Shown in pieces: positions 746 through 39,314 of a stretch of DNA of 64,000 nt. Source of the DNA: a virus; the IMG/VR virus record IMGVR_UViG_3300016643_000133, positions 1 through 64,000 of that record; one strand, 5' to 3'. A program made the position numbers and the translations under genes. How positions within the stretch are numbered: position 1 is the stretch's first letter; each line of letters begins with the position of its first letter. The notes below the pieces were generated by a model, which was given only the letters and a program-made list of their open reading frames with translations, ran no database searches and had not been told where the DNA came from.

Positions 746-764
746 TTGCCTAAAAGCATGCTGG

Positions 765-772
765 TATAAATA
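765..772 (+). promoter_or_regulatory. T4-type late promoter TATAAATA
   Basis: Exact gp55 consensus upstream of the HNH gene; gp55 is encoded in the window. Confidence 0.85.
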
Positions 773-774
773 AA

Positions 775-845
775 GGTGCCTGTCACGGTGCGTCAACACC
801 TACAGGCTCTATGTCTATAACTATAACAACAGGAGACACAGCATG
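775..845 (+). ncRNA. Structured 5' leader, copy 1 (bulged hairpin plus SD-containing hairpin)
   Basis: GCCTGT/ACAGGC, GGTG/CACC and TGTCT/AGACA stems; covaries with the copy at 39000-39060 on the - strand. Confidence 0.7.
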
Positions 846-1541
846 TCTATTTATTTTCCTATTCAAAACAAGTATTATCGTTGGTATCAAAACTTAGTTC
901 AAAAAGCTAAGAACAGACAACTTGATAATACTGTCTATACAGAAAAACACCATATTTTGCCAAAATGTCTTGGCGGCAATGATACCGCCGAGAATCTTGT
1001 ATCATTAACCTTACGAGAACACTATATTGCTCATTTGCTTCTATCTAAATTTTATGAAGATGAAGCAGGTAGAAAAATGCATTATGCCATGTGGATAATG
1101 CTTCTTCAACAAAAGAAAAGAGGTTCTAGAGTTTTTGAAATGTATAGAACAAAATATATTGAAACCTCTCTCAAAACTCAAATAATTACTGATGAATTTA
1201 GGCAAAATGTTTCTAAAGCTTTAACTGGTAAAAAGAAAACAAAAACTTCAAAATTATTGGCCAAATATGAACGGATGAAGAATGAGATGTGTGGTAGTGG
1301 AAATCATATGTTTGGAAAGAAACAATCAGAAGAAACAAAGAAAAAGATATCAGAAAAAGCAAAAGGTAGAAAACAATCAAAAGAAACAATACAAAAAAGA
1401 GTTTCTAAGTTAAAGGGTAAAAAGAAGAATGATACTCATGTTGGCGAAAAAAATCCAATGTTTGGCAAAAAACACTCACAGGAAACCAAGAAAAAAATAG
1501 GCGAATTAAGTAGGCAAAGATGGCAAAACATAAATAGATGA
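843..1541 (+). CDS. HNH homing endonuclease with NUMOD3 repeats
   Basis: EKHHILPKCLGG...NLVSLTLREHYIAH HNH core; NPMFGKKHSQETKKKI NUMOD3 motifs. Confidence 0.9.
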   Translation: MSIYFPIQNKYYRWYQNLVQKAKNRQLDNTVYTEKHHILPKCLGGNDTAENLVSLTLREHYIAHLLLSKFYEDEAGRKMHYAMWIMLLQQKKRGSRVFEMYRTKYIETSLKTQIITDEFRQNVSKALTGKKKTKTSKLLAKYERMKNEMCGSGNHMFGKKQSEETKKKISEKAKGRKQSKETIQKRVSKLKGKKKNDTHVGEKNPMFGKKHSQETKKKIGELSRQRWQNINR

Positions 1542-8010: not shown

Positions 8011-8396
8011 AAAAATTAAATGAAAAATTATCTGAAGCTTTAGAAATACAACCAATTCAAATGGAAACAACAGAGGTTGTAGAAGTAAAAGATACTGTTG
8101 AAGATGATGCTGAGTTTGCTAGGCAAAACCTTCGTGACTTAATTGAAAAAGGCAACGATGCAGCAGACCATATTATTTCTGTTGCTAAGCAATCTGACCA
8201 CCCAAGAGCATTTGAGGTGGTAGCAGGTATGTTAAAGAATCTTGCTGATATGAACAAAGACCTATTAGAGGTACAGAAGCGTAAACAAGATTTACAACCA
8301 AAAGTTACCAACAATACACAAAACCTTACAATAGATAAGGCAGTTTTTGTTGGGTCTACGGCAGAATTATTGAAACAACTTAAAGAAAATAAATAA
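8007..8396 (+). CDS. gp16: Terminase small subunit gp16
   Basis: SDHPRAFEVV; VFVGSTAELLK. Confidence 0.92.
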   Translation: MKKLNEKLSEALEIQPIQMETTEVVEVKDTVEDDAEFARQNLRDLIEKGNDAADHIISVAKQSDHPRAFEVVAGMLKNLADMNKDLLEVQKRKQDLQPKVTNNTQNLTIDKAVFVGSTAELLKQLKENK

Positions 8397-8400
8397 TTTA

Positions 8401-8931
8401 ATGTCAAAAAGTTACCAAAAAATTTGGACAGAATCATATGGTAAAATACCAAAAGATGAAAATGGTAATTCTTTTGAAATCCATCATATTGATGGAAATA
8501 GACAAAATAATAATTTGAAAAATCTTATATGTTTGTCTATAAAAGACCATTATAAAATACATTGGCAACAAAAAGATTATTATGCTTGTCTTTTGATTAG
8601 TAAAAGAATGAACATGAGTGAAAATGAAAAACAAAAGTTAAAAGATAAAATTATTGAATCAAATAAAACAAGAATAATATCTGAAAATTTGAAAAAGAAG
8701 ATGTCTGAAGGTATGAAAAAAGCTAAAACCGGATGGATACCTTCAAAAGAAACAAGAAAAATATGGAGTGAGCAACGCAAAGGCAAAGAGCCTGGAAATA
8801 AAGGTAAAAAATATAAATTGGAAAATTATCCTAAAAATAGAAAAAGTAGAGGTCCTTTGTCTCCAGAAACAATTGCTAAAATGAGTTTAGCAAGAAAACT
8901 CTGGCACGAACAAAGAAAACAAGGAAATTAA
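8401..8931 (+). CDS. HNH homing endonuclease with NUMOD3-like C-terminus
   Basis: EIHHIDGNRQNN..NLICLSIKDHYKIH; basic tail; inserted between gp16 and dps/gp17. Confidence 0.85.
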   Translation: MSKSYQKIWTESYGKIPKDENGNSFEIHHIDGNRQNNNLKNLICLSIKDHYKIHWQQKDYYACLLISKRMNMSENEKQKLKDKIIESNKTRIISENLKKKMSEGMKKAKTGWIPSKETRKIWSEQRKGKEPGNKGKKYKLENYPKNRKSRGPLSPETIAKMSLARKLWHEQRKQGN

Positions 8932-36729: not shown

Positions 36730-37298
36730 GCGATATCTTAACCATTGACACCGGTGCTGGTGTAACATATAAACAAACACTAGACCCTTTGCCATTGTTT
36801 GACGAAAATCATCCGATGTTAAAGATGGTAATACCTGATTATAAACAAGCACTACCAAACCCAATTATGACAAATCTGGTAAAGCGTTTGCATATGACCA
36901 GAAAATTATATGGTGGTATTGGTCTTTCTGCCAATCAATGTGGTGTATTTGAAAGAGTGTTTGTAATTGGTACTGACCACTTTGATTTGGCTTGTATCAA
37001 CCCAAAAGTAATTGAAATGTCGGCAGATGTAATGAAAAGTGATGAGGGTTGCCTCTCTTACCCAGGCCTGTATGTTAAAATAGACAGACCAAATTGGGTT
37101 CAGGTTGAGTTTACTGATGAAAATGGACAAACAAAACAAACTCGCCTAGAAGGTCTAAGTGCAAGATGTTTTTTACATGAACTTGACCATATGAACGGCA
37201 AAAAGTTTGTTGAGTATGTAGGCCCTGTTGCATTACAAATGGCAAGAAAAAAACAGGAAAAAATAATGAAGAAGGTTATTCGTAATAGAAAGAAATAA
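36726..37298 (+). CDS. def: Peptide deformylase
   Basis: GIGLSANQ, EGCLS, HELDH motifs. Confidence 0.95.
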   Translation: MSDILTIDTGAGVTYKQTLDPLPLFDENHPMLKMVIPDYKQALPNPIMTNLVKRLHMTRKLYGGIGLSANQCGVFERVFVIGTDHFDLACINPKVIEMSADVMKSDEGCLSYPGLYVKIDRPNWVQVEFTDENGQTKQTRLEGLSARCFLHELDHMNGKKFVEYVGPVALQMARKKQEKIMKKVIRNRKK

Positions 37299-38575
37299 TG
37301 GCTTATAGTTTTGACCCTAAAGATGATGTAGAAACACAATGGCAGAAATGGCAAGAACAAACGCCAATTAAGCCATTGTCTTTCACCGAAGATGAACTGC
37401 GTGATAGAACCATCAAAGAACTAGGCTATGTTTCACAAATGGATGTGAAAGAATATACCTTGTTTCAAAAGTGGTGTGAAGTGCAAGAAAAATACCCATC
37501 TATTGTAACACAAACATTATGGGGTGAAGAATGTCTGTTAGAAGATGAGGGTCAACGCCGGGCCATACAAGAAATCAAAAACAATTTTTGGATACCAAAC
37601 GACCCTGATGCATACTTGGCATTAGAACCTGAGCTTGTATATGCCAATAAACAAGATAATTTACCTGAATTGTGGAATTGTATTCGCACATTTTCTTCTA
37701 CGATGAAGAATAATTCCAACATTGGTCGCAATCTAAACTTTATTGTCAAAGATAAACCAACACAAAAATATCTTGGTGTTATTTGTATTTCATCTGACTT
37801 TTTAGATTTGACACCAAGAGATAACTTTATTGGTTGGAGTAGAGAAAAGAAAACACAAGGCGGTATGATTAACCATACTGCGATTGGTTCTACAATTGTG
37901 CCATTACAACCTCTTGGTTTTAATTATGTTGGCGGTAAATTGTTGGCTTTGCTTTGTTTAGCCACACCCATACAAGAACTATGGGAAAAACTATATGGTG
38001 ATAAGTTGGTAAGTATTACAACAACATCACTTTATGGTAAAACAAAAGCTGGTGGGTTGTCCCAATACGATAATCTGGACTACTGGCAGCCAATGGGCTT
38101 TACCTCAGGTTCAGTATCGTTTGAACCATTGCAAGATACTCGTTACATGATTCGTGAGTGGTTGAAAGTAAACCATACACGAAAGTATTTTGAATGGTAT
38201 GTAGCAAAGAAACCAAGTGGTCAACCGCATAAGCGTGACCACAAAAATCGTTCATTGTCTTTTGCTTATGCTAAGTTATCTGTGCCAAAAGAATTGATTC
38301 GTTCTGAACACGCAAGAGGCATTTACTTTGCACCTTTGTATGATAAGACCTGCGAATTTCTCCGCGGCGATAATGATGGCAAAGATATGAAAAAGTTGTT
38401 TAATACTGATGTAGAAAGCCTAAGTAATATATGGAAAGAGAAACACGCCAAACCAAGAATTAAACAGTTGGTTAAAAAAGGCAGAGTTTCTTCTGACACT
38501 CTTTTCTATGATGACCTTACCGTGTTATCATGGGAAGAAACAAAGGCTAAATATCTTATACAGGTTGGCAGATAA
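37298..38575 (+). CDS. DUF4338/Druantia DruA-like protein, paralog 1
   Basis: IVPLQPLGFNYVGGKLLALLC; TTTSLYG; SQYD; GFTSG. Confidence 0.7.
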   Translation: MAYSFDPKDDVETQWQKWQEQTPIKPLSFTEDELRDRTIKELGYVSQMDVKEYTLFQKWCEVQEKYPSIVTQTLWGEECLLEDEGQRRAIQEIKNNFWIPNDPDAYLALEPELVYANKQDNLPELWNCIRTFSSTMKNNSNIGRNLNFIVKDKPTQKYLGVICISSDFLDLTPRDNFIGWSREKKTQGGMINHTAIGSTIVPLQPLGFNYVGGKLLALLCLATPIQELWEKLYGDKLVSITTTSLYGKTKAGGLSQYDNLDYWQPMGFTSGSVSFEPLQDTRYMIREWLKVNHTRKYFEWYVAKKPSGQPHKRDHKNRSLSFAYAKLSVPKELIRSEHARGIYFAPLYDKTCEFLRGDNDGKDMKKLFNTDVESLSNIWKEKHAKPRIKQLVKKGRVSSDTLFYDDLTVLSWEETKAKYLIQVGR

Positions 38576-39002
38576 AACCTTTATGATTTGATTGTTTTCC
38601 TTTAGAAACATTTATCATACCACTCTGAAAAAGGCCATTCTCTTTACAGAATTTTGTTAAATTTTTTATTAATAATTTTGTTCCGTCAGGATAAGTAATT
38701 AACCATTCTTTAGAAAGTGTGTTTGCTATTTTTTGTTTTTGTGATTCATAATTAGGTATGCCTTTGTTCCAAGGTATTTTTCCTTTATTTGCTTCACTCT
38801 GTTTCTTTTTTGTTTCTTCGGATAGTTTTTTACCTAAGTTTATTTCTCGCAACAACTGTTTAGTAGAATCATCAAGTTTTTCACCTGGAATTCCACCATA
38901 AGAATGAAAAGCATCTTTAGGTATTTTTAATGGATTATTTTTACACCATTCACGAAGTTCAATAATAAATGGGTCATTTTTATTTCTCAAATAAATATCC
39001 AT
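38556..39002 (-). CDS. NUMOD3/HTH DNA-binding protein (homing endonuclease remnant, no clear nuclease domain)
   Basis: KKLSEETKKKQSEANKGKIPWNKG; NLTKFCKENGL; own late promoter and SD; the only credible minus-strand gene. Confidence 0.8.
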   Translation of the reverse strand: MDIYLRNKNDPFIIELREWCKNNPLKIPKDAFHSYGGIPGEKLDDSTKQLLREINLGKKLSEETKKKQSEANKGKIPWNKGIPNYESQKQKIANTLSKEWLITYPDGTKLLIKNLTKFCKENGLFQSGMINVSKGKQSNHKGFICQPV

Positions 39003-39068
39003 GCTGGCATAGTTCCTTTATGTTAGAGTGGGTGAGAACGGCAATTCTGCGACCCACACCTATTTATG
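39000..39068 (-). ncRNA. Structured 5' leader, copy 2, with late promoter CATAAATA
   Basis: Reverse complement: CATAAATA GGTG TGGGT CGC AGAA TTGCCG TTCT C ACCCA CTCTA ACATA AAGGAAC TATGC CAGC ATG. Confidence 0.7.
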
Positions 39069-39079
39069 CCTTAAAACTA

Positions 39080-39109
39080 TTGACTTTTAGCATAAGTATT
39101 TGATATAAT
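39080..39109 (+). promoter_or_regulatory. Sigma70 promoter for the tRNA-like RNA
   Basis: TTGACT-N18-TATAAT with extended -10 TG. Confidence 0.7.
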
Positions 39110-39255: not shown

Positions 39256-39284
39256 TTGACAAACCGGCCAAATGGTGATATAAT
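39256..39284 (+). promoter_or_regulatory. Consensus early (sigma70) promoter
   Basis: TTGACA-N17-TATAAT with extended -10 TG. Confidence 0.9.
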
Positions 39285-39314
39285 GGTTAAATAATAATGA
39301 GTAAGGGTATTTCC

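Follow-up and report, generated by a model that had tools for sequence, protein, structure and literature searches.

We think it probable that the free-standing homing endonuclease genes (HEGs) of uncultured T4-like phages are headed by a portable control cassette of ~85-95 bp that makes a cis-antisense RNA. The underlying element is real, widespread, uncatalogued and structured; the family to which it belongs is large, strongly covarying and tied to HEGs of several nuclease classes, and its secondary structure is selected on the strand opposite the gene.

The stretch of DNA that was analysed (the window) is 64,000 nt long and represents positions 1 to 64,000 of the 95.7-kb IMG/VR record IMGVR_UViG_3300016643_000133, whose proteins show ~30% identity to those of T4-like cyanomyoviruses. 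An earlier note, made from the letters alone, had described two copies of one leader architecture in this window, and both were found to read exactly as written there, copy 1 at window 765-845 (plus strand) and copy 2 at window 39068-39000 (minus strand). The order of parts on the gene's strand is the same in both: a late box, GGTG, a 5-bp stem, CRC, a 4-bp stem and a 6-nt loop, followed by the returning halves of both stems with one Y facing CRC, then CTCTA, a small hairpin holding the Shine-Dalgarno sequence (SD), CAGC and ATG. The placement of the SD within the second hairpin was confirmed in both copies. The leader had also been said to lie right after a late promoter, and throughout the family a T4-type late box does stand 0-3 nt upstream of GGTG, outside both hairpins. 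An anchor pattern with all stem positions set to N gave exact matches in the window at copies 1 and 2 only. The same virus record contains a third match to this pattern outside the window (copy 3, G000:C1:91867-91903, minus strand), with stems that differ from those of copies 1 and 2 and are still complementary; copy 3 precedes the gene for a homologue of the copy 2 protein, and a perfect inverted AATAAATA is found there too. The features of the two copies within the window are as follows, with hairpins 1 and 2 of the earlier note designated B and A, respectively, on the antisense strand.

765..772, plus strand: copy 1 sense box TATAAATA, resembling a late promoter, with 2 nt between it and GGTG; on the predicted antisense RNA these positions read UAUUUAUA, within the 3' tail.
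775..811, minus strand: copy 1 hairpin B region (hairpin 1 of the earlier note), with family covariation; on the gene's strand GGTG / CCTGT / CAC / GGTG / CGTCAA / CACC / T / ACAGG / CTCTA, and on the minus strand a 6-nt loop above helices of 4, 1 and 5 bp that are separated by single bulged Gs, with a closing G-C pair at the foot.
812..842, minus strand: copy 1 hairpin A region (hairpin 2 of the earlier note) and the invariant CAGC; TGTCT...AGACA with the SD AGGAG; on the minus strand GCUG and UAGAG pair (C-G, U-A, G·U), lengthening the hairpin A stem.
848..855, minus strand: copy 1 inverted late box AATAAATA and predicted antisense promoter, 5 nt from GCTG; the coding strand reads TATTTATT here, within codons 2-5.
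763..842, minus strand: copy 1 predicted cis-antisense RNA of ~80 nt, judged from sequence and fold.
843..1541, plus strand: copy 1 cargo gene, an HNH homing endonuclease of 232 aa with two NUMOD3 repeats.
39061..39068, minus strand: copy 2 sense late box CATAAATA, which abuts GGTG directly.
39024..39060, plus strand: copy 2 hairpin B region, its selected fold antisense to the gene; on the gene's strand GGTG / TGGGT / CGC / AGAA / TTGCCG / TTCT / C / ACCCA / CTCTA.
39003..39023, plus strand: copy 2 hairpin A region and CAGC, with the SD AAGGA in loop and arm; on the plus strand a 9-bp stem, CUG/UAG included.
38990..38997, plus strand: copy 2 inverted late box AATAAATA, 5 nt before GCTG.
39003..39070, plus strand: copy 2 predicted cis-antisense RNA of ~68 nt, on the same basis as that of copy 1.
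38556..39002, minus strand: copy 2 cargo gene, a 148-aa NUMOD3 protein with no recognised nuclease domain.

The proposal that a conserved, covarying element travels with HEGs was borne out by the metagenomic record. At least 108 unique matches to the anchor pattern were found in IMG/VR, and in 105 of the 108 listed both stems were complementary, though the pattern had left the stems as N; after three further IMG/VR scans the collection stood at no fewer than 324 loci and 221 unique cassettes, 218 of them with hairpin 1. The covariation statistics come from 105 aligned members, in which 93.2% of cells were paired, compared with 69.0% in shuffled sequences and 29-50% with slid partners. Double-change cells numbered 424 against 113 expected, a count that, like the wobble counts given below, overstates independent events because the sequences are phylogenetically related. 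In hairpin 1, double changes occurred at all nine variable pairs with ~99% of the pairing kept across more than 160 distinct versions, and a hairpin 2 of at least 4 bp was present in 77 of the 105 members where ~11 were expected. The invariant linkers and shared first codons do show that the cassettes have a common ancestry, and their likeness might be nothing more than common descent without function; we consider this exceedingly improbable, since drift would have destroyed the pairing that the double changes at all nine hairpin 1 pairs have preserved.

Further homologs were looked for with a covariance model, as the earlier note had proposed. Model R1 recovered three copies, and no more, from this genome, 111 from 898 kb of related contigs and loci and one to seven per large phage genome, and 12 additional matches with a variant GGTG each stood in front of a GIY-YIG or HNH ORF. 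Pairing of the first two GGTG bases with CTCT was considered and rejected, as the variants TGTG, GTTG, AGTG, ATTG and GATG carried no compensating change. Within genomes, a comparison limited to five pairs, the three copies here differ from each other at 8-11 of 15 variable positions (random mean 7.0), and the inner stem is common to the copies in one other genome. The element had not been recognised as a named RNA family, and it matched none in Rfam 15: the whole window gave no matches at the gathering threshold, and a permissive E-value scan of all three copies on both strands returned only junk elsewhere, far below threshold. Searches of 50,697 phage records by BLASTN with both loci and a typical cassette found nothing, and TBLASTN with a typical cargo protein against phage records found only relatives at 31% identity or less; among the cultured phages in that collection, none had the cassette or a near homologue of its cargo.

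The earlier note had taken the fold to be that of an RNA leader in the mRNA. The covarying structure was upheld, but the strand was not, as judged by which mismatches are tolerated (86 A·C versus 4 G·U in total on the sense strand) and by the lower folding energy of the antisense strand in 189 of 200 members. Read on the gene's strand, the 161 distinct versions of hairpin 1 contained 1423 Watson-Crick pairs, 24 A·C and a single G·U, and the 147 distinct versions of hairpin 2 contained 585, 30 and 3, respectively; hairpin 2 pairs were counted by finding the stem in each sequence separately, because U·G counts taken from the MAFFT register were spurious. The combination of the middle CRC base with the single opposite Y was G-C in 101 cases, A-U in 28, A·C in 32 and G·U in none. 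The CRC motif is indeed kept, as had been claimed, but it is not a plain bulge: since its middle base pairs with Y, it is really one base pair between two bulged flanking bases. An A·C on the sense strand is a G·U on the opposite strand, and we therefore assigned the selected structure to the antisense strand. Among these related sequences, A·C in hairpin 1 has by our estimate arisen independently at least 10 times. The asymmetry (A·C to G·U) was 23:1 for inverted HEGs and 17:0 for co-directional ones, and its presence in both orientation classes indicates that the strand of the fold follows the gene and not the surrounding operon.

The folding energies and the invariant linkers point to the same strand. 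Mean minimum free energies of the core were -19.4 kcal/mol for the antisense and -14.6 kcal/mol for the sense strand. The antisense fold of copy 1 reached -26.1 kcal/mol (z -3.3) and its sense core -18.1 kcal/mol (z -1.5), while copy 2 gave -19.4 and -13.8 kcal/mol, respectively; across the three copies in this virus the z-scores were -3.3, -1.5 and -2.7 for antisense and -1.5, -0.6 and -0.9 for sense. The antisense RNAs of these three copies fold as two adjacent hairpins. On the antisense strand only, GCUG (the complement of CAGC) and UAGAG (that of CTCTA) form a continuous extension of hairpin A through C-G, U-A and G·U pairs, and CAGC and CTCTA are both invariant because they pair together on that strand.

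These results bear directly on the reading of the cassette as a sense-strand 5' leader in the HEG mRNA, whether as a 5'-terminal stabiliser flush with the start of late transcription, as a hairpin that modulates the SD or as the target of a phage translational repressor. It is the reading suggested by a late box 0-3 nt from hairpin 1 and by an SD in the loop and 3' arm of hairpin 2, related ribosome-binding-site hairpins regulate T4 I-TevI and segB and Aeh1 mobE (PMC2988022), and similar hairpins were so interpreted by Dassa et al. in the available text of their paper (PMC2677866). A structure selected in the mRNA should nevertheless tolerate G·U and not A·C, and the observed ratio of 86:4 runs the other way; the sense fold is the weaker one in 189 of 200 members, CAGC, CTCTA and the frame-independent TATTTA described below are left unexplained, and with a 0-nt spacer a T4-type start would land inside the outer stem. 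We consider a sense leader unlikely. As for the suggestion that such a leader binds a protein or ligand, no evidence points that way. The earlier note had further proposed that CATGCTG (757-763) pairs with CAGCATG at the start codon and silences read-through transcripts. This pairing is present in the minimum-free-energy fold of the long copy 1 transcript; across the family, complements of at least 6 nt to the CAGC-ATG region were found in 18 native and 21 permuted pairs out of 209. The upstream complement is thus not enriched in the family, and we take the copy 1 pairing to be a coincidence.

A second conserved feature lies within the coding sequence of the cargo. Nearly all cargo ORFs start with M-x-I-Y, and downstream of CAGC there is a conserved ATG-N3-TATTTAT, which read on the other strand gives the late-promoter core. 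Of 210 members, 115 (55%) have TATTTA exactly, mostly 5 nt after CAGC, with TATATA (28%) and TACTTA (10%) in members lacking the exact core. Across HEG families TATTTA is read as x-I-Y in 76 cases, as Y-L in 13 and as I/L-F in 14, and because it is encoded in all three frames it must be a nucleotide-level signal and not a protein feature. Locus L031 has its ATG upstream of CAGC and still keeps the spacing between CAGC and the hexamer. Immediately 5' of the Ile codon there is a T in 98.6% of cases versus 35% in gene bodies, the Tyr codon is TAT in 90% versus 73%, and ATC is avoided. In this virus the inverted TAAATA core is found in 3/3 copies, 5 nt from GCTG. These codon and frame patterns establish the inverted core as a nucleotide-level signal at a fixed distance from CAGC, and we infer from them that the inverted box is a candidate antisense late promoter.

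The distribution of the heptamer ATAAATA in the window is in keeping with such a role. There are 13 occurrences on both strands where 24.7 ± 5.2 were expected, so the heptamer is depleted, and four of the 13 are the sense and inverted boxes of the two window cassettes; on the minus strand the only occurrences are the copy 1 antisense box and the copy 2 sense box. A T4-type late promoter signal, avoided in other places, would give this pattern. The occurrences other than the cassette boxes are all on the plus strand, several of them 5-60 nt upstream of long ORFs. One lies inside the last codons of the copy 1 HEG (window 1530-1536, plus strand) and may drive late transcription of the genes downstream, as promoters inside T4 seg and mob genes are described to do (PMC2988022).

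Tabulation of the downstream genes, a check that had been proposed with the original claim, returned homing-endonuclease-type genes in all cases examined: every one of these cassettes precedes a small gene of the GIY-YIG, HNH or NUMOD3 type. Among 107 cargo proteins, 41 were assigned to NUMOD3, 24 to GIY-YIG and at least 19 to HNH families. The copy 1 protein matches NUMOD3 (8e-16) and the homing endonuclease phrog_655 (2e-46), and NUMOD3 repeats are the sole part that it has in common with the copy 2 protein, in agreement with the view that the two cargo proteins are dissimilar. The copy 2 cargo (38556-39002, minus strand) belongs with relatives in L054, L080, L095, L099 and L113 to a family of small proteins of 130-170 aa with an N-terminal motif like DPFIxELRxWCKNNPL followed by NUMOD3 and with no recognisable nuclease domain. 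The copy 3 cargo is a NUMOD3/zinc-finger-like protein, also with no nuclease domain. Divergent from copy 3 and ~80 nt away is a gene for a SegE-type, GIY-YIG-only protein of 135 aa (PF19835, 1e-33; L003:1559-1966, plus strand, corresponding to about 91925-92332 of G000:C1), and this gene and the copy 3 cargo may be the remains of a rearranged endonuclease. The window also encodes an HNH homing endonuclease of 176 aa at 8388-8931 (plus strand; HNH_3, 1e-11; phrog_12324) that has no cassette and has a AATAAATA box 5 nt before its ATG. The cassette is not carried by every HEG of this phage.

About two thirds of the cassette-bearing HEGs (IMG/VR loci L004-L304) are oriented against their surroundings, with 80 inverted to both flanking genes, 40 co-directional and 22 mixed, and the co-directional ones start at a median of 2.5 nt past the end of the upstream gene. 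Copy 2 is of the first kind: its gene is inverted with respect to both neighbours, and its 3' end overlaps by 20 bp the 3' end of a gene for a DruA-like protein. The DruA-like protein (Druantia defence; 425 aa, window 37298-38575, plus strand) was recognised by PF14236 at 2.7e-20. On the other side, two near-perfect sigma70-type promoters at 39080-39109 and 39256-39284 (plus strand; 11/12 and 12/12, both with a TG extension) sit between the copy 2 cassette and the gene at 39297 for a 791-aa protein, which has no Pfam assignment and whose cyanophage tblastn matches are annotated as peptidase. These are probably early promoters.

The excess of inverted cassettes (80, against 40 co-directional and 22 mixed) and the position of the copy 2 antisense hairpins, which the sigma70-like promoters of the next gene on the plus strand follow closely, would both be in line with an insulator or terminator that stops or stabilises host transcripts running backwards through inverted HEGs, with no dedicated antisense promoter. 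Co-directional cassettes, which have no backward host transcript, show the 17:0 asymmetry and the same TATTTA frequency all the same, the scans found no U-run terminator signature, and the frame-independent inverted box is left unexplained. We give this alternative little credence.

A further alternative is a hairpin in the DNA itself, also raised in the earlier note as the mark of a mobile cassette's end. G·T is the mildest mismatch in DNA too, and the wobble test alone therefore cannot separate an antisense RNA from a bottom-strand DNA hairpin. Such a hairpin would form in single-stranded template DNA during replication, recombination or homing and would serve the mobility or maintenance of the cassette; it would have to sit on the bottom strand, where the wobble bias fits it and the facing boxes do not. 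The loops of hairpin B could be taken in its favour. Their 6-mers occur as reverse-complement pairs (TTGCCG 21 and CGGCAA 11, TTGGCG 10 and CGCCAA 9, TTGCAG 16 and CTGCAA 5), which may be the footprint of DNA-level hairpin template switching. Integron attC sites likewise fold on the bottom strand and have bulged bases with conserved flanks, and the bulged bases of the cassette, with conserved flanks of their own, resemble this logic. Against it, the strand of the fold tracks the orientation of the gene and not that of its neighbours, the facing late boxes at fixed distances are explained by transcription instead, no recombinase is associated with the cassettes, and HEGs move by double-strand-break repair, which needs no end structures (PMC2988022). 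Taken together, we regard a DNA-level role as rather improbable.

Our preferred explanation remains a cis-antisense RNA directed by the cassette itself. The inverted box would serve as a late promoter and fire an RNA of ~75-80 nt. A T4 late box occupies -13 to -6 relative to the start of transcription, and if this spacing is assumed the predicted antisense RNA has its 5' end at the G opposite the last C of CAGC. From there, the RNA would comprise hairpin A, with an invariant CUG/UAG base, 4-5 variable base pairs and a loop containing the SD complement, then hairpin B, in which two single bulged Gs divide the stem into 5, 1 and 4 bp below a GC-rich 6-nt loop with 59% GC in the family, and finally a 3' end formed by the U-rich complement of the sense box. 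Simple scans for a canonical intrinsic terminator, with a U-run no more than 0-2 nt behind a GC-rich stem, found none on either strand, CACC splitting the antisense hairpin B stem from UAUUUAUA. By position, the predicted RNA spans the SD and CAGC up to the AUG; since the 5' UTR, SD and AUG of the HEG mRNA are complementary to it over their whole length, the two RNAs would pair. Pairing probably begins by loop-loop kissing, and inversions of the loop would be neutral because kissing between sense and antisense keeps complementarity automatically. The resulting duplex would block ribosome binding or trigger cleavage, and the convergent late promoters, ~80 bp apart, could add transcriptional interference, the predicted net effect being that a potentially toxic nuclease is held low. 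A bolder extension, which we consider doubtful, is that the cassette acts as a transferable RNA 'muzzle' with which nucleases of unrelated classes can establish themselves in phage genomes: each copy would make its own antisense RNA, the fast-covarying stems and GC-rich kissing loops would set its specificity and so allow independent regulation of copies in one genome, and in mixed infections the RNA could act in trans on a competitor's matching cassette as an RNA layer in marker exclusion.

The closest parallel is with the RNA-OUT/RNA-IN system of IS10/Tn10, in which a 69-nt antisense RNA (RNA-OUT) is directed against the translation initiation region of RNA-IN (PMC5006887). In both cases the gene is a selfish one for an enzyme that cuts or moves DNA; the facing promoters at the 5' end of the IS10 gene have a predicted counterpart in the two boxes of the cassette, and a short stable antisense RNA, here predicted from the sequence, matches the translation initiation region by complementarity; in IS10 the copies in a genome can add up, and the cassette family has one to seven per phage genome. 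The two differ in that the cassette promoters are T4-type late boxes and not sigma70, that there are two hairpins and not one, that the overlap takes in the whole 5' UTR and that the cargo consists of several homing endonuclease classes in phages; they have no sequence or Rfam relationship.

In the sar/ant system of P22 and in hok/sok, a cis-antisense RNA from a convergent promoter in the leader or 5' end covers the ribosome-binding site of a harmful gene. The cassette is predicted to have the same layout, whereas its sequences, structures and promoters differ, and the sar/ant and hok/sok RNAs have been demonstrated experimentally while that of the cassette is predicted and portable between unrelated ORFs.

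Hairpins that sequester the ribosome-binding site are known for T4 I-TevI, I-TevII, I-TevIII and segB and for Aeh1 mobE, and in this type the late promoter lies inside the hairpin, so that late transcripts lack the inhibitory arm (PMC2988022). The cassette resembles it in combining a HEG, a late promoter and RNA structure around the SD with a presumed role in restricting expression of the nuclease. Unlike the T4/Aeh1 type, its box lies outside both hairpins with the SD hairpin wholly downstream of the box, the family has no conserved upstream complement, and the selected fold is on the other strand.

The nearest published description that we found is that of Dassa et al. (2009), who described free-standing HEGs, GIY-YIG and others, whose 5' UTRs carry TATAAATA in hairpins together with two conserved motifs complementary to each other, in the setting of 'fractured genes' of uncultured phages from ocean metagenomes (PMC2677866). 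Compared by description with the available text, the kind of gene, the late box and the pairing motifs just upstream of the start codon agree, and their hairpins are probably the same element. As far as that text goes, the hairpins were read as sense-strand translational attenuators, with no covariance model and no antisense reading. A link to the gp41-1 fractured gene was sought with a short intein probe of approximate sequence, which gave only generic GNHxFY-like matches at the cassette loci. A text search of the literature turned up no account of phage HEGs under antisense control.

Homing endonucleases influence where recombination boundaries lie and how phages compete, and the known controls of their genes are promoter choice, hairpins at the ribosome-binding site and autorepression. 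If our reading is true, a portable antisense-RNA cassette common to GIY-YIG, HNH and NUMOD3 genes would be an added layer of control. To our knowledge, antisense-RNA control has so far been described for transposons and toxin genes and not for homing endonucleases. It would also explain how inverted insertions are tolerated inside host operons. With more than 200 distinct members, covariation of textbook quality and a strand test built in, the cassettes would further make up a new and abundant RNA family, a candidate for Rfam whose inclusion would allow better annotation of metagenomic phages.
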